From positions 20,575 through 55,289 of the forward strand of contig MGGO01000008.1 of assembly GCA_001792465.1 (NCBI GenBank): 34,715 bases of DNA. The letters run 5' to 3'. The notes beneath the pieces are model-generated. The model saw only the letters and a program-made list of their open reading frames with translations. It did not search any database and was not told where the DNA came from. Position numbers and translations under genes: made by a program. Origin of the DNA: Candidatus Woesebacteria bacterium RIFCSPHIGHO2_01_FULL_44_10. GTDB taxonomy: Bacteria; Patescibacteriota; Microgenomatia; UBA8517. Shown here in pieces: positions 17,790 to 34,181 of this stretch; position 1 is the first letter of the stretch; each line of letters starts with the position of its first letter.

Positions 17790-18023
17790 ATGGCTAAGAT
17801 TGATAGAGAAAAACTAGAAAGTGAATATCTGGACTTACAAGATCAACTTCCAAAACATATTTTAGAACTTGTTGGAGAAGTTGATCCCAATGAGGTTGTT
17901 GATCATTTTTTGGGATTTGCTGTCGAGCACGCAAGAGATCCTATTCAAGCAAACGCAGAGTTGGAAAGACGGATTAAAAACGCCTTAAGGTCTGGCCAAA
18001 AAGAAGCCGTTAGGGTGTTCTAA
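17790..18023 (+). CDS. Hypothetical acidic 77-aa protein
   Basis: ORF only. TGCTAATAT (17770-17778) lies 11 nt upstream of the ATG. No family recognised. Confidence 0.5.
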   Translation: MAKIDREKLESEYLDLQDQLPKHILELVGEVDPNEVVDHFLGFAVEHARDPIQANAELERRIKNALRSGQKEAVRVF

Positions 18024-19230: not shown

Positions 19231-19260
19231 TTTCTATCAAAAATAAACCGAATTAGTCAA
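19231..19260 (-). promoter_or_regulatory. Putative lexA promoter (TTGACT-17/18 nt-TGATAGAAA on the minus strand)
   Basis: The minus strand reads GGTTGACTAATTCGGTTTATTTTTGATAGAAATTAATACGAAGATG. Confidence 0.3.
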
Positions 19261-19278
19261 CCACATCTTTCTATGTCA

Positions 19279-19287
19279 TGTTATAAT
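19279..19287 (+). promoter_or_regulatory. Extended -10 element TGTTATAAT, 5 nt upstream of the ATG at 19293
   Basis: Read directly. The same 13-mer ATGTTATAATGAA recurs at 29670-29682. Confidence 0.45.
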
Positions 19288-19292
19288 GAAGC

Positions 19293-19646
19293 ATGGCTCT
19301 CACTTATCTAAATATGAAAGTCACCAATCCAACCAACGGCAAACGACCGGTTCAAAGGCGGATGTTAGTGGATTCGGGTGCGATTTTCTCGGTCTTACCT
19401 GCCAGCGTTCTTGGAAAGCTGGGGATCAAACCCGACAGTAAACAAAAATTCGTTCTGGCCAATGGACAAGAAATAGAGAAAGAAGTTGGAGAGGCAAGAT
19501 TCATTTGGAAAGACCGGGCCCGCACTGCACCGGTTGTTTTTGGGGATGAAGACGTTTACTTAATTGGCGCAACAACTTTAGAAAACATGGGTCTTATCCT
19601 CGACCCCATTAACCGCCGCCTGGAAAAGCTCCCCATGTTGCTATAA
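19293..19646 (+). CDS. Retropepsin-like (clan AA) aspartyl protease domain protein
   Basis: Catalytic motif MLVDSGAIFSVLP and the LIGATTLENMGLILD segment. The ~115-aa single-domain size is typical of bacterial and archaeal retropepsin-like proteins. Confidence 0.75.
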   Translation: MALTYLNMKVTNPTNGKRPVQRRMLVDSGAIFSVLPASVLGKLGIKPDSKQKFVLANGQEIEKEVGEARFIWKDRARTAPVVFGDEDVYLIGATTLENMGLILDPINRRLEKLPMLL

Positions 19647-20067: not shown

Positions 20068-20101
20068 TAAGTTAGCTCACCAAAAATAGCTTCAGTAATT
20101 G

Positions 20102-24998: not shown

Positions 24999-26800
24999 AA
25001 AAAATTTTCTTGCTTATTTTAAGTTTATTTTTTCTTTTCCCTGCAAATGTTTCTGCAGAAAGTGAATTTTTAACCAAAGCGGAGGTAGTTTATGACGTCG
25101 GAGAAGACGGGGTGACAACAGTCACCAACAACATTACTTTAACTAACGTCTTTTCAAACCTTTATGCCACAAGCTACGCCATGCAGGTTGAGGGCTTAGA
25201 ACCCACAAGCGTGAAGGCAGTGGAGGCAGGCCAAGTGCTACCCGTTACAATCGAAAAAGATGGAGAAAAAACAGTCATCAGAGTCGAGTTTGAAAGAGAT
25301 GTTGTCGGAAAAGGCAAACAACGCAACTTCACTATCAGTTTTACAGAGCGGTCTCTTGCGGTCAAGACTGGTGAGGTTTGGGAAACAGCGGTCCCAAAGC
25401 TGGGTGCACAAGACTCCTTTGATTCCTACACTCTTATTTTACAGGTTCCCAAGTCTTTCGGCCAAGCCGCTTTTATTTCTCCCCAACCGATAACTTCAAG
25501 TGAGAAAGACAATAAATACAGGTATGTTTTTGACAAAGACAGTGCCAGCGCGCACGGCGTGACCGCCGCCTTCGGCCGTTTCCAGGTTTTTGAATTTAAC
25601 CTCGTTTACCACCTTGAAAATCCCCTGACCAAAACGGCTGTTGTTGGTATCGCCATTCCTCCTGATACCGCGTTTCAAAAAGTAAATTATAAAACACTTG
25701 ACCCCGCACCCGAAGTAGTCCAAGTTGACCAAGATGGGAACTGGATTGCAACGTATAAGCTCACCTCCAGACAGAGGTTAGACGTTCGCGCAACCGGGGC
25801 AGTGCAAATCTTTGCTACAGAAAGGCAATTTCCCAAGCCAAATTCAGTTTCTTTGCAACAAAATCTACTTGCCACCGACGTTTGGCAAACTACCGATCCA
25901 AGAATCATCAATCTGGCAAAGCAACTTATTACCCCAAAACAAATATATGATTATGTGGTAGCTACTCTGATATACGACTATGACCGAGTGAGGCCCAACA
26001 TCAACCGCCTGGGGGCCATTGACGCTCTTGCAAACCCGGGGAGCGCGATCTGCATGGAGTTTACGGATCTTTTTGTAGCCCTGGCCCGGGCCGCGGGTAT
26101 TCCGGCCCGTGAAGTAAATGGCTATGCTTATACCGAAAATAGGCAGCTTCAACCGCTTTCCCTGGTTGCCGATGTTTTACACGCCTGGCCTGAGTATTGG
26201 GATGACGTTAGAGGTGTCTGGGTGCCCATCGACCCCACTTGGGGGTCAACCACCGGTGGGGTTGACTTTTTTACCAAGCTTGATTTAAGACACTTTGCCT
26301 TTGTCATGCACGGGATAAACCCTGACAAGCCTTTCCCCCCGGGATCATATAAACTGGGTGCCAATCCCCAGAAAGATGTCTATGTCGCCTTTGGCAGCTT
26401 GCCAAGCCAGCGCAAAAGCATACCCAAAATTGAGATTGAAGTCCAAAAGGCGCTGCCTTTCATGGCAACTTCCGCAAAAATAATTGTTAAAAACGACGGG
26501 CCGGTGGCCCTTTATGACTTAAACGTCTTAATTCTTTTCGACACTAAAATAGAAACTGAAAAAACCATCGCCATTTTGCCCGTTTACGGAAAACAGGAGT
26601 ACCAAGTTTCAATTCCGTTTAGCATTTTGGGCGTTAACACTCCGCAAAATATCAAAGTTGTCGTCGGGGGCAATTCGCTAACGGCTCCGTCTTCCAAAAA
26701 TTGGGTTATACTAATGAGTTTAGCCACCATCTTTTTAATTATTGGCCTAACTATCGGCTTTATTTATTGGAGAGTGAAAATTCATGAGAATAACAGTTAA
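24995..26800 (+). CDS. Secreted, C-terminally membrane-anchored transglutaminase-like cysteine protease domain protein
   Basis: Sec signal MKKIFLLILSLFFLFPANVSA, then a transglutaminase-core Cys/His/Asp (CMEFTDLFVALARAAGIPAREVNGY, HAWPEYW, WVPIDPTW) and a C-terminal TM helix (ILMSLATIFLIIGLTIGFIYW). It overlaps uvrA by ATGA and uvrC by 17 nt. Confidence 0.8.
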   Translation: MKKIFLLILSLFFLFPANVSAESEFLTKAEVVYDVGEDGVTTVTNNITLTNVFSNLYATSYAMQVEGLEPTSVKAVEAGQVLPVTIEKDGEKTVIRVEFERDVVGKGKQRNFTISFTERSLAVKTGEVWETAVPKLGAQDSFDSYTLILQVPKSFGQAAFISPQPITSSEKDNKYRYVFDKDSASAHGVTAAFGRFQVFEFNLVYHLENPLTKTAVVGIAIPPDTAFQKVNYKTLDPAPEVVQVDQDGNWIATYKLTSRQRLDVRATGAVQIFATERQFPKPNSVSLQQNLLATDVWQTTDPRIINLAKQLITPKQIYDYVVATLIYDYDRVRPNINRLGAIDALANPGSAICMEFTDLFVALARAAGIPAREVNGYAYTENRQLQPLSLVADVLHAWPEYWDDVRGVWVPIDPTWGSTTGGVDFFTKLDLRHFAFVMHGINPDKPFPPGSYKLGANPQKDVYVAFGSLPSQRKSIPKIEIEVQKALPFMATSAKIIVKNDGPVALYDLNVLILFDTKIETEKTIAILPVYGKQEYQVSIPFSILGVNTPQNIKVVVGGNSLTAPSSKNWVILMSLATIFLIIGLTIGFIYWRVKIHENNS

Positions 26801-28040
26801 CCTGCCGGACACACCGGGAGTGTATCGTTTTTTAGACCACGGCGGCAAAACACTCTATATCGGTAAAGCTAGAAACCTAAAAAATAGAGTTGCTTCTTAC
26901 TTCCTAAAAAGCGTGTTTGGAAAAACCAAGAAGATGGTTAGCCAGGCTAAGAGTATTTCTTGGGTGAAAACACTTTCTGATTTTGAAGCCATATTGCTTG
27001 AAGCCCAGTTGGTCAGAAAACACCAGCCTTTTTACAACGTTCAGTTAAAAGACGACAAATCTCCAATTTATATTGTGATCACGCAGGACGAATTCCCCCG
27101 GGTGACAATGGCGCGGAAAAGCGGCACTTTTGGCCCCTATACTAATGCTCAAACTGTCCGCAAGGTTTTAAAACTAATACGGCGGATTTATCCTTTTAGT
27201 CAGCACAAAGTTGGCAGAAAGGCTTGTCTTTATAACCAAATGGGTTTATGTAGCCCGTGTCCAAATACGATTAAAAACTCTGTACAAAAGCAAAAATATT
27301 TGCAAAATATCAAAAACATTAAAAAGCTTCTGAGCGGGGACTTGAAATTTGTCCGTAATGATTTGGGAAAAGAGATGCAGAAATATTCGAAAAAAAACAA
27401 CTTTGAGGAAGCGCAAAAAGTATTAACTAAGATGCAAATCCTTGATTATGTGACGACTCCAACCACTGTGGTAGAGAGGTACCTTAATAATCCCAATCTA
27501 GCGGAGGATTTACGCCAGCAAGAGGCGCAGAATCTGGCCCGCTACGTACAAGGTCCGTCCTTGTACGTAGGGCGGATAGAGTGCTATGATGTAGCTCATC
27601 TGGCTGGGACCAATCCTACCGCCTCAATGGTCACTTTCGTGGATGGTGAGCCGGACAAAAACCGGTATCGGCACTTTAAGATCAAAAAGGCCAGGCGGGG
27701 AGATGACTATGGAGCCTTGAAAGAGGTGCTAGAAAGAAGAAAAAAGAGATTTGAAGACTGGGGGAAGCCAGATTTGATAATTGTTGATGGTGGAAAGGGC
27801 CAGTTGTCAGCTGCCCTGGAAGTATTTGGCTATGATTTACCGGTCGTCGGGTTAGCCAAAAAATTTGAAACACTCGTTTCCTTCCAAAATGGCAAGTTTG
27901 TTTCTACCCGACTGCCTGCCGGACCTGCGCGAAATTTAGTAGTTCGTCTGCGCGATGAAGCCCACCGCTTTGCCCGCCGCCTCCACCATAAACAAGTCGC
28001 CAAAACCTTAACCCAAAATTTGCCAAGTGTGGTAGAATGA
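26784..28040 (+). CDS. uvrC: Excinuclease ABC subunit C, short form lacking the C-terminal (HhH)2 domain
   Basis: GIY-YIG domain (PGVYRFLD..TLYIGKARNLKNRVASYF), UVR motif (FEEAQKVLTKMQILD) and the RNase H-like endonuclease domain (IECYDVAHL, DLIIVDGGKGQL, VVGLAKKFE, LRDEAHRFA). The protein ends ~25 aa later at 418 aa. Confidence 0.9.
   Translation: MRITVNLPDTPGVYRFLDHGGKTLYIGKARNLKNRVASYFLKSVFGKTKKMVSQAKSISWVKTLSDFEAILLEAQLVRKHQPFYNVQLKDDKSPIYIVITQDEFPRVTMARKSGTFGPYTNAQTVRKVLKLIRRIYPFSQHKVGRKACLYNQMGLCSPCPNTIKNSVQKQKYLQNIKNIKKLLSGDLKFVRNDLGKEMQKYSKKNNFEEAQKVLTKMQILDYVTTPTTVVERYLNNPNLAEDLRQQEAQNLARYVQGPSLYVGRIECYDVAHLAGTNPTASMVTFVDGEPDKNRYRHFKIKKARRGDDYGALKEVLERRKKRFEDWGKPDLIIVDGGKGQLSAALEVFGYDLPVVGLAKKFETLVSFQNGKFVSTRLPAGPARNLVVRLRDEAHRFARRLHHKQVAKTLTQNLPSVVE
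28013..28031 (+). repeat. Direct repeat copy 1 (CCAAAATTTGCCAAGTGTG) inside the last codons of uvrC
   Basis: An exact 19-mer that recurs at 31966-31984. It extends to TTAACC(C)AAAATTTGCCAAGTGTG if one C indel is allowed. Confidence 0.9.
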
Positions 28041-28044
28041 ATTA

Positions 28045-28140
28045 ATGACTGCCGGGGAAACAAAGGTCTATTCTGAGTTTTTTACGAACCTCGCAGTAGC
28101 TTGGTTTTCTGCCGGGGCCAAGGGAGGAAACAAACCATGA
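28045..28140 (+). CDS. Mini-ORF 1 (31 aa, MTAGETKVYSEFFTNLAVAWFSAGAKGGNKP)
   Basis: The ATG lies 4 nt after the uvrC stop codon. The ORF ends in an ATGA overlap with mini-ORF 2 and contains the GGAGG that serves as the SD for mini-ORF 2. Confidence 0.3.
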   Translation: MTAGETKVYSEFFTNLAVAWFSAGAKGGNKP

Positions 28141-28241
28141 TAACAACAGAACAACTATGGCTCGCATTTGCTTTCGCCGCAATTGGTACAAATTTAATCG
28201 GTTTTTGGGCAATCTATCGTGTCACAAGAAAGAAAAAATGA
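28137..28241 (+). CDS. Mini-ORF 2 (34 aa single-TM peptide, MITTEQLWLAFAFAAIGTNLIGFWAIYRVTRKKK)
   Basis: GGAGG lies 8 nt upstream of the ATG. The peptide has one hydrophobic helix and a basic C-terminus. It has ATGA overlaps on both sides. Confidence 0.45.
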   Translation: MITTEQLWLAFAFAAIGTNLIGFWAIYRVTRKKK

Positions 28242-28324
28242 ACCCTGAAACAGTAGTTTATGCCTTAGCAATTATTACCAGCCTTATTACGGTGTATTTG
28301 CTTTTTTTCAAATACAAAGACTAA
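28238..28324 (+). CDS. Mini-ORF 3 (28 aa single-TM peptide, MNPETVVYALAIITSLITVYLLFFKYKD)
   Basis: ATGA-coupled to mini-ORF 2, with one hydrophobic helix. All three mini-ORFs fall below the 60-aa cut-off of the ORF track. Confidence 0.4.
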   Translation: MNPETVVYALAIITSLITVYLLFFKYKD

Positions 28325-28326
28325 GG

Positions 28327-28362
28327 CCCAAAACTTGACAAAAGTTGGGGAAAATGTAAACT
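28327..28362 (+). repeat. Promoter-like module, copy C (CCCAAAACTTGACAAAAGTTG ... TAAACT)
   Basis: It shares an exact 21-mer with 32053-32073. TTGACA (28335-28340), a 16-nt spacer and TAAACT (28357-28362) precede the GTG at 28369 by 6 nt. AACTT-GACAA-AAGTT is an inverted repeat. Confidence 0.6.
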
Positions 28363-28368
28363 CAAATT

Positions 28369-29628
28369 GTGAGAGTTAACAAATTTCCCGCAAGGCTGAA
28401 ACCGAGAAACATTCTCCAAAAACTAATTCCTTTCCTTAAAACAGAGGAAATTCTTTTATTATACGGAATGAGACAAACAGGCAAAACTTCGCTCATGTTT
28501 CTTCTTATGAATTATCTTCTCAACAAGAAGGTTGAACAATCCCAAATTGTTTATCTTGACTTGGAGAACATCGCTGACTTTGAGGCCTTAGAAAAAATCA
28601 GAGATTTTGACAATTTTATCAATCTACTTAAAGTCGTCCATAGGGTAAACATCAAAAAAAGAACTTTCATTTTCATCGACGAGATTCAACACCTAACTAA
28701 CCCCTCATCATTCTTAAAATACCTTCACGACCACTATAAACCCAATCTAAAGTTTATCGTTTCAGGGTCATCATCTCTGGAAATTAAAAAGAAATTTAGC
28801 GACGCTTTAACCGGTAGGATTTTACGGTTTGAAGTTCTCCCGCTTGAATACAAAGAATTTTTAAACTTCAGCGACCAGAAATCCTCTCTAACCAATTTTG
28901 AGGAATTCATTCTCTACGGCGGTTTTCCGGCAATCTCTTTGAAAAGTGATAGTGAAACCAAAGAACTGCTTCTAAAAGAAATTTATTCCCTTTATGTCAG
29001 GCGAGATATTAAAGATATCGGCGCGATCGAAGATATTTTATCTTTCAACCGATTGGCCGGTATTTTAGCAGCCCAGATCGGAAGTTTAGTTTCTGAAGTC
29101 AATCTATCCAATGCGGTTGACATTTCCAGACCAACAACAAAGAATTATCTTTTTATCCTTCAAAACACTTTTGTTATTAATCTTTTAACACCCTTCTTCA
29201 CCAATCCTAAAAAGGAATTAACTAAAACCCCCAAGGTCTATTTCAATGATACGGGATTAAGAAATGCGGCACTAGATAATTTCACTGACCTATCAAAAAG
29301 GGTCGACAAAGGATCCTTGGCAGAAAATGCTGTCTTTTCCGAGTTAAAAAAAGCGGGCATTGAAAAAATCAACTTCTGGCGTACCGAGCGCAAACAGGAA
29401 ATTGACTTTATTCTCCAAATTCAGGGAGAGATCTTCCCATTGGAAGTAAAATATCAAACCTTTAGAAACCCAAGAATTTCCTCCAACTTAAAAACGTTTA
29501 TCAAAAAATACCAGCCCGCAAAAGCCTATATCGCGACAAAAAACTTCAAGACCCAAACCGACTTTTTAGCCACCAAAGTTTATTTTGTTCCCTGTTACAA
29601 GCTGAACTATTTACTGCTTAAGGCGTAA
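28369..29628 (+). CDS. AAA+ ATPase of the COG1373 / DUF4143 family with a PD-(D/E)xK-like C-terminal region
   Basis: Walker A GMRQTGKTSL and Walker B FIFIDEIQH. The C-terminus reads ERKQEIDFILQ....FPLEVKYQ, which is restriction-endonuclease-like. The start codon is GTG. Confidence 0.8.
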   Translation: MRVNKFPARLKPRNILQKLIPFLKTEEILLLYGMRQTGKTSLMFLLMNYLLNKKVEQSQIVYLDLENIADFEALEKIRDFDNFINLLKVVHRVNIKKRTFIFIDEIQHLTNPSSFLKYLHDHYKPNLKFIVSGSSSLEIKKKFSDALTGRILRFEVLPLEYKEFLNFSDQKSSLTNFEEFILYGGFPAISLKSDSETKELLLKEIYSLYVRRDIKDIGAIEDILSFNRLAGILAAQIGSLVSEVNLSNAVDISRPTTKNYLFILQNTFVINLLTPFFTNPKKELTKTPKVYFNDTGLRNAALDNFTDLSKRVDKGSLAENAVFSELKKAGIEKINFWRTERKQEIDFILQIQGEIFPLEVKYQTFRNPRISSNLKTFIKKYQPAKAYIATKNFKTQTDFLATKVYFVPCYKLNYLLLKA

Positions 29629-29660
29629 CATTTCTGTAAGCATCCAGCACAGAAAAAAAT

Positions 29661-29748
29661 TTGCGTGGTATGTTATAATGAAAAAACGATTTGTCAAGGC
29701 CCAAAACTTGACAATCTAACCTGAAAGGAATATTATAGGGTTATAAAT
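29661..29748 (+). repeat. Promoter-like module, copy A (88 nt, paralogous to 32014-32101)
   Basis: 47/57 identity to copy B over the core at 29692-29748, and 18/31 over the upstream part. It contains TGTTATAAT (29671-29679), the inverted repeat TTGTCAAG-N8-CTTGACAA (29691-29714), and TTGACA-17-TATTAT (29708-29736). Confidence 0.75.
29681..29714 (-). terminator. Possible terminator of the minus-strand MTase/NTase/NUDIX operon
   Basis: The minus strand reads TTGTCAAG-ttttgggc-CTTGACAA, then atcg, then TTTTTT. The T-run is offset by 4 nt from the stem, so the terminator is non-canonical. Confidence 0.3.
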
Positions 29749-29750
29749 CC

Positions 29751-30200
29751 CTATTTTGTGAGGCCCAGTTGTTGCGGAGCAGTGGCAGCTCTTTCATCTA
29801 TAACCTCTTTTAGATGTTTTCTATAAAGTTTAAAATATTTCATTAGACCGGATGTCAAATCTAGTTTGTCAATATCTCTTGTTCTAAACCAGCCTAGTTC
29901 TTGTCCTTCATTCCCAAGTTTTACCCTTTTGAATTCGCTAGGGGTGAGCCTGACTGTAAAAAAAGCATGCTTAATAAAAAAGAAAACAGACAAATTTCCA
30001 AGGTAAGTAATGTTTTTAGGTACTATATCAATTTCTTCTTTGAGTTCGCGAATTAGGGCCTCTTTATGATTTTCTCCTGGCTCCAAACCCCCGCCCGGCA
30101 ACGACCACTTATCCGCCTCTTTTAACCCAGGAATATTGTCTCTTTGGATAAGTAGTATTTTTTTCCTGTATATAACAATAGCTTTTGAAGACGATTTCAT
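29751..30200 (-). CDS. NUDIX hydrolase
   Basis: Nudix box GGGLEPGENHKEALIRELKEEIDI. TGTTATATC (30215-30207, minus strand) lies 6 nt upstream of the ATG. Confidence 0.88.
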   Translation of the reverse strand: MKSSSKAIVIYRKKILLIQRDNIPGLKEADKWSLPGGGLEPGENHKEALIRELKEEIDIVPKNITYLGNLSVFFFIKHAFFTVRLTPSEFKRVKLGNEGQELGWFRTRDIDKLDLTSGLMKYFKLYRKHLKEVIDERAATAPQQLGLTK

Positions 30201-30231
30201 TGTTTGGATATAACATCAGCTGATTCGTCAT

Positions 30232-30993
30232 TTATTGCAAGAAAAACTTCCTCCGATCTATAATCACATTTAGATCAGAAATCTCTCGTATTATCTCTAT
30301 TCTTGCTCCATCAATAGGATTTACTTCTCCATCCATTTCGCCAAATTGAGGGTCAAAAACAACTCCTTCGTAGTGAAATGGTAAATGATGGTAATCGGAA
30401 GCATTGGTGATAACACCAGATATGCGGGCTTTTTCAAGAACTTCGTAAGCCCTTCTGCTCTTTTCTCTCCCGTATATCCCGAAATCAAGTTCATGTCTTT
30501 TTACCGGCTGACCAAACATAAGAGAACTTCCCGTAATTCCAATGTCATCAATACCAACCTCAATAAGTTTACACAAATTTCTTAAAGCTTCACCATCTTT
30601 GGGAATTTTGTCAAGATATGCCGGGGTAAAAGAATGTGGATCTTTGATCTCTTGAACATATTTTGTGGACAAAAAAGAAACTTTTCCTAGGTTCTCTTTT
30701 TCAACAAGGTCCTGAACCATCGGTAAGTATGTAATCCTATAAGAGGAGATCGACTGCCCAAAAACCTTTAAGTATTTTTGGCCATTAAGTTCTAATGACT
30801 TTTGTTCCGCCAGTTCCATAGATTCATCAACTGGTATGTAGGAAAGAATACAGGGTAATGCATCTTTCACGCCATTAACTGTCCAAGACCCGCAGCAGTA
30901 CCAGAAAGACCCATCGCTCGAACGTATAATGCTTCCAATAAGAGCATGGGGAGGGAAACTAACCAATCTTTCCTGCAAATATTCTGGTATCAT
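30232..30993 (-). CDS. Hypothetical protein with a C-terminal minimal nucleotidyltransferase-like (Pol-beta fold) motif
   Basis: IDDIGITGSSLMFGQPVKRHELDFGIYG fits the hG[GS]-x(9-13)-[DE]h[DE]h NTase pattern, with a later acidic strand VVFDPQF. The N-terminal ~140 aa are Cys/Trp-containing (FWYCCGSWTVNG) and unrecognised. It overlaps the upstream MTase gene by ATGA. Confidence 0.45.
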   Translation of the reverse strand: MIPEYLQERLVSFPPHALIGSIIRSSDGSFWYCCGSWTVNGVKDALPCILSYIPVDESMELAEQKSLELNGQKYLKVFGQSISSYRITYLPMVQDLVEKENLGKVSFLSTKYVQEIKDPHSFTPAYLDKIPKDGEALRNLCKLIEVGIDDIGITGSSLMFGQPVKRHELDFGIYGREKSRRAYEVLEKARISGVITNASDYHHLPFHYEGVVFDPQFGEMDGEVNPIDGARIEIIREISDLNVIIDRRKFFLQ

Positions 30994-31832
30994 ACAACGG
31001 GTGATTTGACAGCTTTGATATCTCCGAAATAAACAGGGACATGTCTTCCCAAGCGATTGACATGATATTTGCCAAACTCGGTGCGTAAAGGCTTCCCGTC
31101 AGCTATGATTGGCTGACCGTTTTCATCGTGCTGTATTTTAGCCTTTGTGATTAGAGACTGATTGAAGACATGACTCATATCATTAGCAAACTCGACTCTG
31201 AATCGCTGTTGCATTAACGCTGATACGTGATGTTCCATTGTCTGTGTTTTGAACACATAAATCCGGTCAAAAATTGCTAACGCCTCAGCCTCTATTTCTG
31301 TGAGCTCTCTGTTATGCTTAAAAACACCTTTATCGTACACAAATCCACCCGGTCTCAGAACCCTGTAGACTTCTGAATACAATCTTTCCAGTGAGTACGA
31401 ATATCCCGAAGATTCAAGGAAATAAATACCGTCAAAGGTATTGTCAGGAAAAGGTAACTCGTGAAAATCACACACATATACCTGGATGTGGTCACTCAGA
31501 CCCTTTTCTTGAACCAGTCGATGACCGATCTTTGCTTGTTCCAGTGAAAGCGTTACAGCACTGATTCTCGTTGTTTCTGTGAAATTAACAATATCAATAG
31601 CAGGTCCACAGGTACCACAACCAGCGTCGAGGAGGCAACTTCCAGATTTAATTCCCATCTTTTTTGCCACAAATTCATTGGTCTCGCGGTATGGATCTTC
31701 CTTGTAATGAATAAGTGTTGCAGCCTGGTAGCTATAGCCAATGTTATCAAGAATTAGTCGATTCATTCGATTGTAGTATTCTTTAACACTCTGTCGATAC
31801 TCCGAGAATTGTGGATGGTCTACTTCGGCCAT
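30990..31832 (-). CDS. Class I SAM-dependent methyltransferase (Methyltransf_11 / sterol-MT-like small-molecule type)
   Basis: Motif I LLDAGCGTCGPAIDI, the post-I acidic residue, HELPFPDNTFDGIYFLES and LRPGGFVY. The ATG at 31832 (MAEVDHPQF) is preferred over the TTG at 31925 used in the ORF track. Confidence 0.8.
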   Translation of the reverse strand: MAEVDHPQFSEYRQSVKEYYNRMNRLILDNIGYSYQAATLIHYKEDPYRETNEFVAKKMGIKSGSCLLDAGCGTCGPAIDIVNFTETTRISAVTLSLEQAKIGHRLVQEKGLSDHIQVYVCDFHELPFPDNTFDGIYFLESSGYSYSLERLYSEVYRVLRPGGFVYDKGVFKHNRELTEIEAEALAIFDRIYVFKTQTMEHHVSALMQQRFRVEFANDMSHVFNQSLITKAKIQHDENGQPIIADGKPLRTEFGKYHVNRLGRHVPVYFGDIKAVKSPVV

Positions 31833-31924
31833 TGTTGATAGAATACTATTTCTGTAGTTAAATCTCCACTTTGGGCTACACCCTGCCTCCGCACACCACC
31901 ACACGGCCAAACGCAATCTCCCCA

Positions 31925-31990
31925 ATGAGTAAGATTGGCCAGCCTGTGGGTGGGCTTTTGGTTAACCAAAATTTGCCAAGTGTGTTTTGA
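31925..31990 (+). pseudogene. 21-codon ORF that looks like a relic or duplicate of the uvrC 3' end (..VNQNLPSVF*)
   Basis: It contains direct-repeat copy 2 in the same reading frame as in uvrC (..LTQNLPSVVE*). Confidence 0.3.
31966..31984 (+). repeat. Direct repeat copy 2 (CCAAAATTTGCCAAGTGTG)
   Basis: Exact match to 28013-28031, located 3,953 bp downstream. Confidence 0.9.
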
Positions 31991-32013
31991 ACGGAGTTCT
32001 TAAACACGAGTGC

Positions 32014-32101
32014 TTGCGCGATGTGCTATACTAAATTAAACTAATGTCAAGACCCAAAACTTGACAAAAGTTGAGGAAAGTAATATTATAGGGTTATAAA
32101 T
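32014..32101 (+). repeat. Promoter-like module, copy B, immediately upstream of the ATG at 32102
   Basis: TGCTATACT (32024-32032), the inverted repeat TGTCAAG-N8-CTTGACA (32045-32067), TTGACA (32061-32066), a 17-nt spacer and TATTAT (32084-32089), then 12 nt to the ATG. Confidence 0.75.
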
Positions 32102-32638
32102 ATGGCAACAGCAGAAAGAACGGCTGAAAAAAGAACAAACTTTGGAAAGATAACTAGAAGGGATTTCTTAAGGGTAGGTTTCGCGGCTTTACTCAGTAGC
32201 TTGCCTGCTGTCCAAACAGCAAGCACGTTAATTAATTCTCCCGCCGAAAGTGAAACTTCTGAGGAATCAAGAAACATAGATCACAGCAGGAGCGTTTACT
32301 CACACGCCAACGAAAGAGAAAATAACCTAACTCCAGTAACACTAAAAAACGGGGACCTGATTACTTGGAAGTGGAACGATCCTGGGGGATTCGAAGCTGT
32401 ATTCAAGGTTGATGTTAGTTTGGAACCAGACCTAAATTTTGGTGCGACCATAGTCCCAGAACACGTACGTGAACAGGGAACAGCCATTTGGGGGTACAGC
32501 TCCCTTGTACCAATTACGGGTGACATGGAATTTCATACAGAGGAGGTAAGAGGTTTGCAAATTAATGGTAAGCCTGTTGTTTGTCGTGCGGAAACATTTT
32601 CTCCAAGGCAGATGAGCGATTGTTTCCTCCAAAATTAA
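32102..32638 (+). CDS. Secreted protein with a twin-arginine (Tat) signal peptide
   Basis: The N-terminus KITRRDFLRVGFAALLSSLPAVQTAS matches the S/T-R-R-x-F-L-K consensus. The mature part is not recognised. Confidence 0.7.
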   Translation: MATAERTAEKRTNFGKITRRDFLRVGFAALLSSLPAVQTASTLINSPAESETSEESRNIDHSRSVYSHANERENNLTPVTLKNGDLITWKWNDPGGFEAVFKVDVSLEPDLNFGATIVPEHVREQGTAIWGYSSLVPITGDMEFHTEEVRGLQINGKPVVCRAETFSPRQMSDCFLQN

Positions 32639-32684
32639 AGTAGACAAACAAGTTTTAATATAATATTACAATTAGGGGCAATTC

Positions 32685-33455
32685 ATGTCCGAAGACGTAA
32701 TCACAAGACGAACTGCTTTAAAGACCTTTGGATTTGCTCTTGGCTCTATTCTGGCTTCCCCAAAAGAATCCGTCAAATCCTTACAAAGAGCTTCTGACTG
32801 GAAGTTAGCGTCTCAAAAACAAAAGAAGTGGCAAGAATTCCAAAAATCTGAAGAATTTAGGAAATTAAATATAGAACATGGTACCAGAGGTGCGGAATTT
32901 GACTTTGGGCAATATGGTTACGCAGAAGCAGAAGGGGCTAGATATTTTGATGGAGCGCCAGTAAGGCACGATGTTAATTTTTTCTTCTCTTCAGTCACTT
33001 TTGACGAGGAAACCCAACAATGGAACCCAAACCCAGAATTTCTAGCTGGGTTTGTCTATGGATATCGTGAGGAGGAAGGGCAAGGTTTAAAAAATTATTT
33101 CACTGGAGAAGAATTTTTGGCTGACTCAAGAACACTCTTTATACACGGTCAAAGGTGGATCGATGGTCTTGGCTGGATTCGCTTAGTCCCAGAAACAGAA
33201 AATAGGCAAAACGCCTCACAGATAAAAATTTACACTTCTTATAATACCGTTGGTAGGGAAGAACCAATAGAGTTTATTGTAGCGGAATCAACCAGGATTC
33301 CTCTAACCCTTGAGGCTACTTACATCAAGAATTCGGGGCGAAGGACAATGCAAAATCCTGCAGGGCATTACTACCTGATCAGCTGTTGGCCGTTCAACGA
33401 AGAAGGGCCAAACACCAGGGAAAGACAGGTTTATAGTCTTCGTAAAGTCAACTAG
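32685..33455 (+). CDS. Exported protein with a Tat-like signal; possible sortase-like cysteine transpeptidase fold (tentative)
   Basis: Signal VITRRTALKTFGFALGSILAS, and AGGGG SD 8 nt upstream of the ATG. The C-terminal part has His154 (LFIHGQR), Cys234 (YYLISC) and Arg247 (C+13, RERQVY). This echoes S. aureus SrtA, which has LITC...NE...R at C+13. Confidence 0.6.
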   Translation: MSEDVITRRTALKTFGFALGSILASPKESVKSLQRASDWKLASQKQKKWQEFQKSEEFRKLNIEHGTRGAEFDFGQYGYAEAEGARYFDGAPVRHDVNFFFSSVTFDEETQQWNPNPEFLAGFVYGYREEEGQGLKNYFTGEEFLADSRTLFIHGQRWIDGLGWIRLVPETENRQNASQIKIYTSYNTVGREEPIEFIVAESTRIPLTLEATYIKNSGRRTMQNPAGHYYLISCWPFNEEGPNTRERQVYSLRKVN

Positions 33456-33509
33456 ACACCACAGATTATTGACTTCTACACTTTTTTTACTCTAAGCTAG
33501 AGTTACAGT

Positions 33510-34181
33510 ATGCCCAACGAAACTAGTGGTTTTGCAAAACTTAAACTAGTCACGGTAACAATAATTTCATTGATCGTCGGACTTTCTTTGGTTATTACAT
33601 TATTAGTTCTACTAAGGCTCGGTAAACTCGAATTTAACACCTATCTCCTTAGAAAAAACCCTTTGATCAATAGCTATTTTCTTCCACCAGGCGAATTGGT
33701 GGTAATATCTAATCATCCGAACTATAGTTTAATGATTAACAACGCTCCATTACTATTAGGATATGCAGATAAGGTTGGGTTATTCCGAAAGTCTGGAATT
33801 TCTTTCCCTTTCCAAAAGGGAGTTCGTATCGACAAGCTGGTGGTTTTCGTAACAAGTGAGGACGGTCCTTCGTCGGGGCAAAACTCATCCCAAGTTTTAT
33901 CCCCGTTGTCAATTTCCAGTATACGAGTCGACAATGAGAACAACTCTCATTCTCTACTGTTTACTTTTAGCATTAATGAAAAATTTATCACTCAGCAAAA
34001 TGTTAGCAATCGTGAGCTGTCCACAAATTTAAATTCCATGGTTCTATTCAACATAGAAACTACTTTACTCGATAAAAAAATTGATATGCAAAAATGGCAA
34101 GATATTTTATCTAATTACCAGGCTATGATGGAGCACGTGTTTGAACAAAATAAAATTCCAATCCTTGTTCAAAACAGATAA
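33510..34181 (+). CDS. N-terminally membrane-anchored hypothetical protein
   Basis: A single N-terminal TM helix (LVTVTIISLIVGLSLVITLLVLL) and a Ser/Asn-rich ectodomain. No family recognised. Confidence 0.6.
   Translation: MPNETSGFAKLKLVTVTIISLIVGLSLVITLLVLLRLGKLEFNTYLLRKNPLINSYFLPPGELVVISNHPNYSLMINNAPLLLGYADKVGLFRKSGISFPFQKGVRIDKLVVFVTSEDGPSSGQNSSQVLSPLSISSIRVDNENNSHSLLFTFSINEKFITQQNVSNRELSTNLNSMVLFNIETTLLDKKIDMQKWQDILSNYQAMMEHVFEQNKIPILVQNR

Follow-up and report, generated by a model that had tools for sequence, protein, structure and literature searches.

Setting and layout of the locus

The DNA analysed here, referred to as the window, is a 34,715-nucleotide stretch of contig MGGO01000008.1 (positions 20,575 to 55,289) from Candidatus Woesebacteria bacterium RIFCSPHIGHO2_01_FULL_44_10, a member of the candidate phyla radiation (CPR). 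The subject of the analysis is a set of short, repeated, promoter-like modules situated at the 3′ end of uvrC and downstream of it, at the boundaries between blocks of unrelated genes. The window matches part of contig MGGY01000014.1 of the metagenome-assembled genome (MAG) GCA_001792945.1 with one mismatch across the overlap, and the same sequence has been assembled independently from several groundwater and sediment metagenomes. Since single contigs from independent samples span the modules designated C, A and B, this array is no assembly artefact. Plus-strand housekeeping genes occupy positions 1–28040; the GC content is ~0.45 before 28041 and 0.37–0.41 from 28041 onwards.

The nearest UvrC among 5.8 billion proteins is only 62% identical. 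The contig encoding it (L046), from the closest relative, retains uvrA, the transglutaminase gene and uvrC on one side and a Phage_holin_4_2-family gene with SBP_bac_5 on the other, at 60–66% amino-acid (aa) identity. Between uvrC and the Phage_holin_4_2-family gene, it has a single unrelated gene for a 389-aa protein. In the window genome, the accessory segment reaches ~36.4 kb (window coordinates), past the window end, before the Phage_holin_4_2-family gene is met. The region is therefore a lineage-specific accessory island and, judging from the gene order, the uvrC-to-holin interval is a hotspot holding such a segment. The preliminary description of this DNA had proposed a comparison with relatives as a way of finding which cassettes lie between the modules; L046 contains neither the modules nor any of the accessory region and, at 62% UvrC identity, is too distant to show an empty attachment (att) site.

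The features of the locus, with P1 and P2 denoting the two repeated sub-elements described below, are the following.

1–28040, plus strand: gatCA, gatB, dnaE, rplS, ruvC, pgi, ppdK, iPGM, lexA, uvrB, uvrA, a gene for a transglutaminase-core protein, uvrC
28008–28038, plus strand: U1, P1 copy TTAACCCAAAATTTGCCAAGTGTGGTAGAAT, with −16 TGTG and −10 TAGAAT ending 6 nt before the ATG at 28045
28045–28325, plus strand: small hydrophobic-peptide block, comprising a 31-aa remnant of a 68-aa peptide (111-nt deletion), a 34-aa open reading frame (ORF; 28139–28243) and a 28-aa ORF (28239–28325)
28323–28368, plus strand: C, P2 copy with core AAGGCCCAAAACTTGACAA; −35 at 28335–28340, −10 TAAACT at 28357–28362, 6 nt to the ATPase GTG
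28369–29628, plus strand: AAA_14/DUF4143 ATPase, matching the PADLOC candidate single-gene defence family PDC-S01 (E = 8e-85)
29653–29748, plus strand: A, full P1+P2 cassette; P1 TATGTTATAAT at 29669–29679, −35 at 29708–29713, −10 TATTAT at 29731–29736
29691–29714, no strand assigned: inverted repeat TTGTCAAG-N8-CTTGACAA inside A, followed on the minus strand by ATCGTTTTTT
29735–29754, no strand assigned: second hairpin, ATAGGG-N8-CCCTAT, to which the end of A contributes together with 6 nt of the neighbouring cassette (with the NUDIX stop codon)
29751–31832, minus strand: cassette of NUDIX (29751–30200), Pol-beta-type nucleotidyltransferase (NTase)-like (30232–30993) and class I S-adenosylmethionine (SAM) methyltransferase (30990–31832) genes
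31956–31984, plus strand: U2, P1 copy TTAACCAAAATTTGCCAAGTGTG, truncated by loss of the −10; the perfect 16-nt palindrome TTTTGGTTAACCAAAA forms its left edge
32014–32107, plus strand: B, full P1+P2 cassette; P1 TGTGCTATACT at 32022–32032, −35 at 32061–32066, −10 TATTAT at 32084–32089, then 12 nt and ATGGCA
32102–34181, plus strand: three lineage-specific genes, for proteins of 178, 256 and 223 aa that are unmatched in Pfam, NCBIfam and PADLOC

Anatomy of the promoter-like modules

Copies A (29661–29748) and B (32014–32101) are 88-nt direct repeats lying 2353 nt apart. They are identical at 65 of 88 positions, with 18/31 in the upstream part and 47/57 (82%) in the core. The end of B abuts the ATG at 32102, and that of A lies 2 nt before the stop codon of the convergent NUDIX gene (ORF 29751–30200, minus strand). 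Copy C precedes the ATPase GTG at 28369 and has an exact 21-mer, CCCAAAACTTGACAAAAGTTG, in common with B. All these coordinates, lengths and identities agree with the preliminary description, as do the TTGACA hexamer, 16–17-nt spacer and TATTAT or TAAACT hexamer in each copy and the TGYTATAMT boxes in A and B. A 15-mer motif, CCCAAAAYTTGMCAA, has five matches with at most one mismatch, at 28012, 28327, 29700, 31965 and 32053; all are within 4.1 kb and none is elsewhere in the 34.7 kb (0.08 expected; none of 100 shuffles reached five). An exact 19-mer, CCAAAATTTGCCAAGTGTG, is found at 28013–28031 and 31966–31984, the ‘uvrC-end’ sites, which agree at 24/25 positions with one indel. Both align with the left parts of A and B, in the region of the TGYTATAMT box, and the five sites are therefore two different sub-elements. 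They had initially been described as one set of five related sites; the five matches stand, with the third at 29700 rather than 29699, but P1 and P2 had been combined in them.

The P1 consensus is AAAATTTGCCAAGTRTGnTAnAAT, in which TRTG directly upstream of a TAnAAT-like hexamer makes up a −16 element and extended −10, with no −35 box. By alignment, the P1 family (AAAATTTGCCAAGT-R-TG-n-TAnAAT) joins the uvrC-end sites, the left parts of A and B and one copy elsewhere; the version at locus D, a copy outside the window, is TGTGTTATAAT. The P2 consensus is AAGrCCCAAAAC-TTGACA-16/17 nt-TATTAT/TAAACT, ending 6–12 nt before the start codon; its hexamers resemble TTGACA and TATAAT and are spaced as in sigma-70-type promoters, for which 16–18 nt is the norm. 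The full cassette of A, B and locus D, ~90–100 nt long, consists of P1, a ~12-nt spacer and P2, with P2 in the form TGTCAAGrCCCAAAAC-TTGACA-17 nt-TATTAT followed by 12 nt and ATG(GCA). U1 is P1 alone, placed before the small peptides, and C is P2 alone, placed before the ATPase gene. Five P2 and six P1 copies were counted, not dozens. The five P2 copies have variable spacers and share a 19-nt core that is identical or nearly so in each, and identical cores at 28323–28341 and 29696–29714 bracket the ATPase gene. U1 doubles as the last seven codons and stop of uvrC; the window UvrC extends ~6 residues beyond the usual end of its homologues, and this tail is encoded by the P1 element. UvrC (26784–28040) and all its closest homologues (~410–450 aa) lack the C-terminal tandem helix–hairpin–helix, or (HhH)2, domain.

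The TTGACA-17-TATTAT arrangement of A and B agrees with the sigma-70 consensus at 11/12 positions and provides the top two matches in 17.7 kb, while TTGACA-16-TAAACT of C (10/12) is among the best promoter-like matches of the region. The motif TRTGnTAnAnT has six matches in the window, all on the plus (coding) strand, against 1.85 expected. They include 28028, 29669, 32022 and the uvrB promoter at 20100, where the motif lies 9 nt ahead of the uvrB ATG; five of the six are just upstream of genes or in modules. In ten first genes of operons in the window, namely uvrB, the methyltransferase gene (31832, minus strand), those at 17790, 19293, 19699, 7346 and 32685, and the genes behind U1, C and B, the best −10-like hexamer ends 5–12 nt before the start codon, and no Shine–Dalgarno sequence was found between the two. 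Internal genes do carry one, such as GGGAGG before the 34-aa ORF. The mRNAs of first genes therefore appear to be leaderless or nearly so, a feature that the sequence suggests is widespread in this CPR genome. The gaps of 6 nt in U1, 6 nt in C and 12 nt in B are all within the genome’s own geometry. Since the −10 boxes of first genes sit 5–12 nt from the ATG, a promoter must abut the start codon, and the repeat accordingly stops there. The ATG that follows such a −10 box is often ATGGC (boxes at the genes of 17790, 19293, 19699, 20120, 7346 and 31832, minus strand). The window promoters at 17790, 19293, 19699, 20120 and 7346 have no core sequence and share only generic −10/TRTG features with the modules, so the motif is not merely a general promoter consensus. 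The gene lexA is divergent (19240–19300) from a gene for a 117-aa retropepsin-like aspartic protease, and neither lexA nor uvrB was seen to have a LexA box similar to the module palindrome ahead of it.

Copy A differs from the other modules in having no plus-strand gene downstream; it lies within the 122 nt that separate the ATPase gene from the convergent NUDIX gene. On the minus strand, a hairpin, TTGTCAAGTTTTGGGCCTTGACAA, followed by the T-run ATCGTTTTTT, is found 37 nt past the NUDIX stop, the layout of an intrinsic terminator. The inverted repeat of A, together with ATCGTTTTTT, looks like such a terminator downstream of the NUDIX operon. The copy may now serve as a terminator between the convergent operons or drive antisense transcription into the decaying cassette. 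The preliminary description had reported the inverted repeats TGTCAAG-N8-CTTGACA in A and B and AACTT-N5-AAGTT in B and C, where they are indeed present, but neither occurs in all copies: the former is absent from C and from the copy at the radical-SAM locus described below (L034), where the left arm is missing, and the latter from A and the L034 copy. The plus-strand A region folds better than its shuffles (z = −4.3), with values of −1.1, 0.0 and +0.2 for B, C and the L034 copy. A search of Rfam gave nothing at the gathering threshold and nothing relevant even at E ≤ 1, no tRNA was found and comparison of the modules with their own reverse complements revealed internal hairpins only, with no terminal inverted repeats.

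A terminator-like hairpin at 31941–31971 (AGCCTGTGGGTGGGCT then TTTGG) is directly followed by the perfect 16-nt palindrome TTTTGGTTAACCAAAA of U2. Both sit in a GC-rich stretch of ~90 nt (31871–31960) with no detectable relative. The idea that this fragment is a displaced uvrC 3′ end or a remnant of another gene was rejected, as no similarity was found.

Further copies, breakpoints and cassette genes

In a collection of 185,579 reference genomes that does not contain the source genome, the core 19-mer gave only four chance matches, in unrelated phyla. Three motif scans of viral contigs also returned only chance matches, and there is no phage link. Metagenomes of the Joint Genome Institute (JGI) contained 13 matches, of which 11 were due to chance and two belonged to a radical-SAM locus (L023/L032, extended as L034). 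The order at L034 is a type IV pilus cluster, a gene for a 203-aa membrane protein, P1, intact genes for 68-, 34- and 28-aa peptides, the core, the right half of A and the ATG of a radical-SAM/SPASM gene. The right half of A and the L034 copy are identical at 50/53 positions, up to that ATG; B and the L034 copy are 82% identical over 61 nt. Locus D, found by aligning the contigs of four runs to the modules at ≥80%, holds a full cassette: AATTTGCCAAGTGTGTTATAAT, ~12 nt, a P2 identical to A at 54/61 positions and then ATGGCAGTACGAAC. A variant upstream sequence in run X3 (‘D-prime’) was rejected as a consensus of two contigs. The ATPase, the 178-aa ORFan and the radical-SAM protein encoded downstream of the copies are unrelated, with no BLASTP similarity and different Pfam assignments. 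The cassette or half of it heads at least five unrelated genes or blocks, namely the small peptides (U1), the ATPase (C), the exported ORFans (B), the radical-SAM/SPASM gene and locus D.

The same 19 runs contain both the L023 locus and the window core, and the shares of the two are correlated (Spearman 0.94). The contig depths of the two loci are similar, and a shared 222-nt unitig has about twice the depth of its flanks. Given this co-variation, the depth and the lack of a close relative in the databases, the extra copies are most likely dispersed repeats in one genome; L034 and D are probably in the same genome as the window. The repeat shared with L034 explains why several assemblies break at 28149–28163 and 28221–28312 (within 28120–28341). 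Contig L013, considered as a third arrangement, was rejected as a chimeric assembly, with Ns exactly where the two loci differ. The intact peptide trio of L034 (9560–9950) is directly upstream of the radical-SAM/SPASM gene, a layout resembling a peptide-maturation cluster; in relatives, the radical-SAM homologues are followed instead by conserved genes of ~70 and ~220 aa. At L034 3773–7138, two MNT/HEPN (NTP_transf_2/HepT-like) pairs and a NUDIX gene are inserted within the type IV pilus cluster.

No modules were found in five relatives with the radical-SAM gene (L047, L048 and L051–L053). L047 has a core-like promoter, AAGTCTTAAAACTTGACAA, the 16/19 match of which was judged insufficient. The radical-SAM promoter of L048 (2930–3003), a distant groundwater relative, reads ATGTCAAGA-N10-TTGACAA-ggggataaatatgc-TATAAT-12-ATG and resembles B, with an uncorrected p of ~0.01 that does not survive correction for 20 comparisons. 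This likeness gives a weak hint that P2 may have originated as a radical-SAM promoter.

Homology between the window and L034 amounts to 82% over 28018–28118, with the 111-nt deletion in the window, and 97.7% over 28120–28341. It halts at the last base of the core, resumes at 29696–29748 (94%) and finishes at the ATG. Relative to L034, the window has 1373 nt (the right part of C, the ATPase gene, the left part of A and a core) between two identical 19-nt cores. The P2 spacers are of two discrete haplotypes: B and C have AAGTTGrG, A and L034 have TyTAACCT, and B is a mosaic of a C-type spacer and an A-type −10-to-ATG segment. In the MAG, a cluster of four single-nucleotide polymorphisms (SNPs; 28276–28289) sets the two copies of the 222-nt block apart. 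Contigs running into the window-locus ATPase gene carry the L034 SNP version in runs X6 and X7, as does the shared unitig in runs X2 and X4. The patch looks like a short conversion tract or a polymorphism common to both loci.

The genes between the modules show signs of decay, with internal deletions in both the first small peptide gene and the NTase-like gene (30232–30993), the latter of ~150 nt. The minus-strand cassette has its own −10-like box 7–10 nt before the ATG at 31832. Its 253-aa ‘NTase’ (30200–30993, minus strand) has no Pfam or PDB match, profile searches of both databases being empty, and belongs to a tiny family of 22 clusters at 50% identity. A Pol-beta-type signature (GSS, 12 residues, ELD, with an invariant D214) was recognised by eye. 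Compared with the closest homologue (317 aa, 76% identical), ~51 residues are missing and the last 19 are in another frame; the gene is probably decayed. A structure prediction was unusable (predicted local distance difference test, pLDDT, 33). The NUDIX protein gives a weak match to PDC-S07 and, taken with the match of the ATPase to PDC-S01, makes the island look like a defence island. Downstream of B, the 178-aa and 256-aa proteins have RR signal peptides resembling those of the twin-arginine translocation (Tat) system. For the 178-aa protein, sought as a guide to orthologous promoters, there was no homologue among the 5.8 billion proteins. No integrase, transposase, Xer-type or other recombinase gene was found in the window or in a further 8 kb downstream, and no regulator gene inside or adjoining the island.

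Probable promoter reuse, its alternatives and known systems

Taken together, these data are best read as a clear yet fairly ordinary case of promoter reuse, with no new recombination system. The repeats are considered, with a probability of about 0.6, to be copies of a single composite promoter cassette that is native to the CPR lineage in question, would have been reused and would also serve as homology for cassette recombination. Exchange between the copies would proceed via short conversion tracts and via crossovers, placed either at the identical 19-nt core or in the conserved −10-to-ATG segment, and the island starting right after uvrC would have been built, and would still be reshuffled, as promoter-led cassettes. 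Copy A would have become an orphan when its gene was replaced by the convergent, partly decayed NUDIX/NTase/methyltransferase cassette. We infer this mechanism and order of events from the present arrangement of the copies. Among the three interpretations of the preliminary description (shared operator, mobile promoter and recombination sites), that of a mobile or reused promoter fits best. The promoter-like character of the modules at gene-block boundaries has been strengthened by the promoter geometry of the genome and by more copies before unrelated genes. The motif was not found upstream of many core genes, which had been named as the observation that would count against it; the other window promoters have only generic features.

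Several points weigh against promoter reuse as set out above. The placement of L034 and D in the same genome is only probable, from co-variation and depth. Promoter activity and leaderless transcripts are predictions from the sequence. Contigs of eight samples contained no deletion or exchange variants, no recombinant junctions (C × A or A × B) and no excised or empty forms, a survey in which rare forms would be missed, and no evident donor structure gives the A|NUDIX junction by a simple crossover. Selection and recent copying are inseparable because the known copies are few (~5 P2 and six P1) and all come from one population. Finally, the 19-nt core is conserved well beyond the needs of a −35 box and an A-tract resembling an upstream promoter (UP) element, which hints at an additional bound factor.

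One alternative is a small regulon with a shared operator, in which a single transcription factor bound to the core or palindrome would control the ATPase gene, those of the exported ORFans, the radical-SAM operon and locus D together. The constancy of the core beside a variable spacer is in line with this, and so is the 8+8 inverted repeat of A and B with its 8-nt gap, which overlaps the −35 and has its centre ~40 nt ahead of the predicted start. The weak resemblance of the L048 radical-SAM promoter to B (ATGTCAAGA...TTGACAA) points the same way at its uncorrected p of ~0.01, but fails the correction for 20 comparisons. The argument for an operator is weakened by the lack of one or both inverted repeats in some copies, the left arm being missing from C and L034 and AACTT/AAGTT from A and L034. 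Moreover, the genes have no functional link, and the island has no regulator gene in or next to it. A common regulon is unlikely; selection on an operator is nevertheless a possible cause of the conservation and is compatible with promoter reuse.

Breakpoints at module edges and the mosaic copies bear out part of the proposal that the modules are recombination sites; given the absence of a recombinase gene and the non-universal palindromes, they look like substrates of ordinary homologous or short-homology recombination. Dedicated site-specific sites, comparable to integron attC or Xer/dif, or with U1 and U2 as att repeats of a 3.95-kb island in the uvrC 3′ end, could be suspected from the exact 19-nt repeat at 28013/31966, which overlaps the uvrC end and flanks a low-GC 3.95-kb segment, from the identical 19-nt cores bracketing the ATPase gene, from the palindromes in A and B and from the breakpoints. 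However, the supposed att sequence is the P1 promoter; it recurs before the L034 small peptides and at locus D, and the left parts of A and B are its homologues. The palindromes are not common to all copies, the 8-N8-8 layout is not the 11-6-11 of dif, the cassettes have their own promoters and one is inverted, which is not the arrangement of integron arrays, and neither excised or empty forms nor an integrase, transposase or Xer-type gene was seen in the material surveyed. Dedicated sites are very improbable on this evidence. We also see little likelihood, though somewhat more, in an integrase-free platform accreting gene cassettes, on which, in a genome translating leaderless mRNAs, short-homology recombination would join incoming genes to a portable promoter with ATG(GCA), with the 19-nt core as the preferred crossover point and perhaps a palindrome-binding protein helping. 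If such a platform existed, cassettes could be added and swapped between the uvrC hotspot, the radical-SAM locus and locus D, and silencing would leave orphans like A.

Two further explanations are both very unlikely. In one, P1 is the sole promoter and the core hairpin a structured cis-regulatory RNA, acting as a riboregulator in the 5′ untranslated region (5′-UTR) or as a protein-binding leader. Transcripts from P1 would include the hairpin, since P1 of A, B and D is ~60 nt ahead of the ATG, and the A region is unusually stable. The extra stability of A, however, comes from a hairpin using 6 nt outside the module; B, C and L034 fold like shuffles, the hairpin is absent from C and L034, Rfam gave no match and the P2 hexamers and their distance to the ATG fit the promoter geometry of the genome. 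In the other, the modules are nothing special, being the organism’s strong-promoter consensus or a miniature inverted-repeat transposable element (MITE) that happens to carry a promoter. The −35, −10 and TRTG elements are indeed generic and a distant relative’s promoter has AAGTCTTAAAACTTGACAA, but the five other window promoters listed above have no core, all five motif matches are confined to 4.1 kb, the identities of 50/53 and 47/57 include non-consensus positions, and there are no terminal inverted repeats and only ~5 copies.

To our knowledge, the promoters of uncultured CPR bacteria have hardly been studied. The locus offers a compact, testable picture of promoter architecture in one CPR lineage, with a TRTG-extended −10 and a −10 abutting the start codon, and a worked example of native promoters joined to lineage-specific, defence-like genes at a uvrC-adjacent hotspot. 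For annotation, the repeat accounts for the assembly breaks at 28120–28341 and for chimeric contigs like L013. On its own, the locus reveals no new mechanism.

Like islands with att repeats, the locus has a 19–24-nt direct repeat that overlaps the 3′ end of uvrC and recurs 3.95 kb downstream, with low-GC DNA and defence-like accessory genes in between. Unlike them, it has no integrase, its repeat is a promoter element of which L034, locus D and the left parts of A and B have further copies, and the lineage-specific region runs well past the second repeat, to the Phage_holin_4_2-family gene (~36.4 kb). Integron arrays (attI/attC with IntI) are similar in that short repeats, some of them imperfect palindromes, separate cassettes in a variable array. 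The present repeats, however, are promoters at the 5′ end of cassettes and not 3′ attC sites; one cassette is inverted, each carries a promoter-like box, the palindrome is absent from C and L034 and no IntI or other integrase gene lies in the window or the 8 kb downstream. Correia elements, enterobacterial repetitive intergenic consensus (ERIC) sequences and REPIN (paired repetitive extragenic palindromes) are short intergenic repeats able to supply their neighbours with promoters, hairpins and terminators. The modules are likewise short intergenic repeats that may supply promoters and hairpins or terminators but, in contrast to these MITE-type elements, have no terminal inverted repeats or target-site duplication, number ~5 copies and are delimited by the start codon instead of transposon ends.

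Of the phenomena described so far, promoter reuse comes closest, in the form of putative mobile promoters (Matus-Garcia, Nijveen & van Passel 2012), the definition of which asks for ≥80% identity across ≥50 nt between the upstream regions (−150 to −50) of non-paralogous genes; uncultured CPR genomes were outside that survey (PMC3575422). As in those promoters, similar upstream sequences stand before non-paralogous genes (no BLASTP similarity, different Pfam assignments) in one genome, with identities of 50/53 between A and the radical-SAM copy, 47/57 (82%) between A and B and 82% over 61 nt between B and L034. In both cases there is no association with an insertion sequence (IS) element, tRNA or Rfam family, and the mechanism of mobilisation is not known. 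The repeats described here, in contrast, lie at −88 to −1 with a shared ATGGCA and not at −150 to −50; the −10 box falls inside them and the start codon marks their end, as is expected for leaderless mRNAs. Further differences are the mosaic make-up of the copies, their position at cassette junctions of an accessory island, the presence of an orphan among them and the CPR host.

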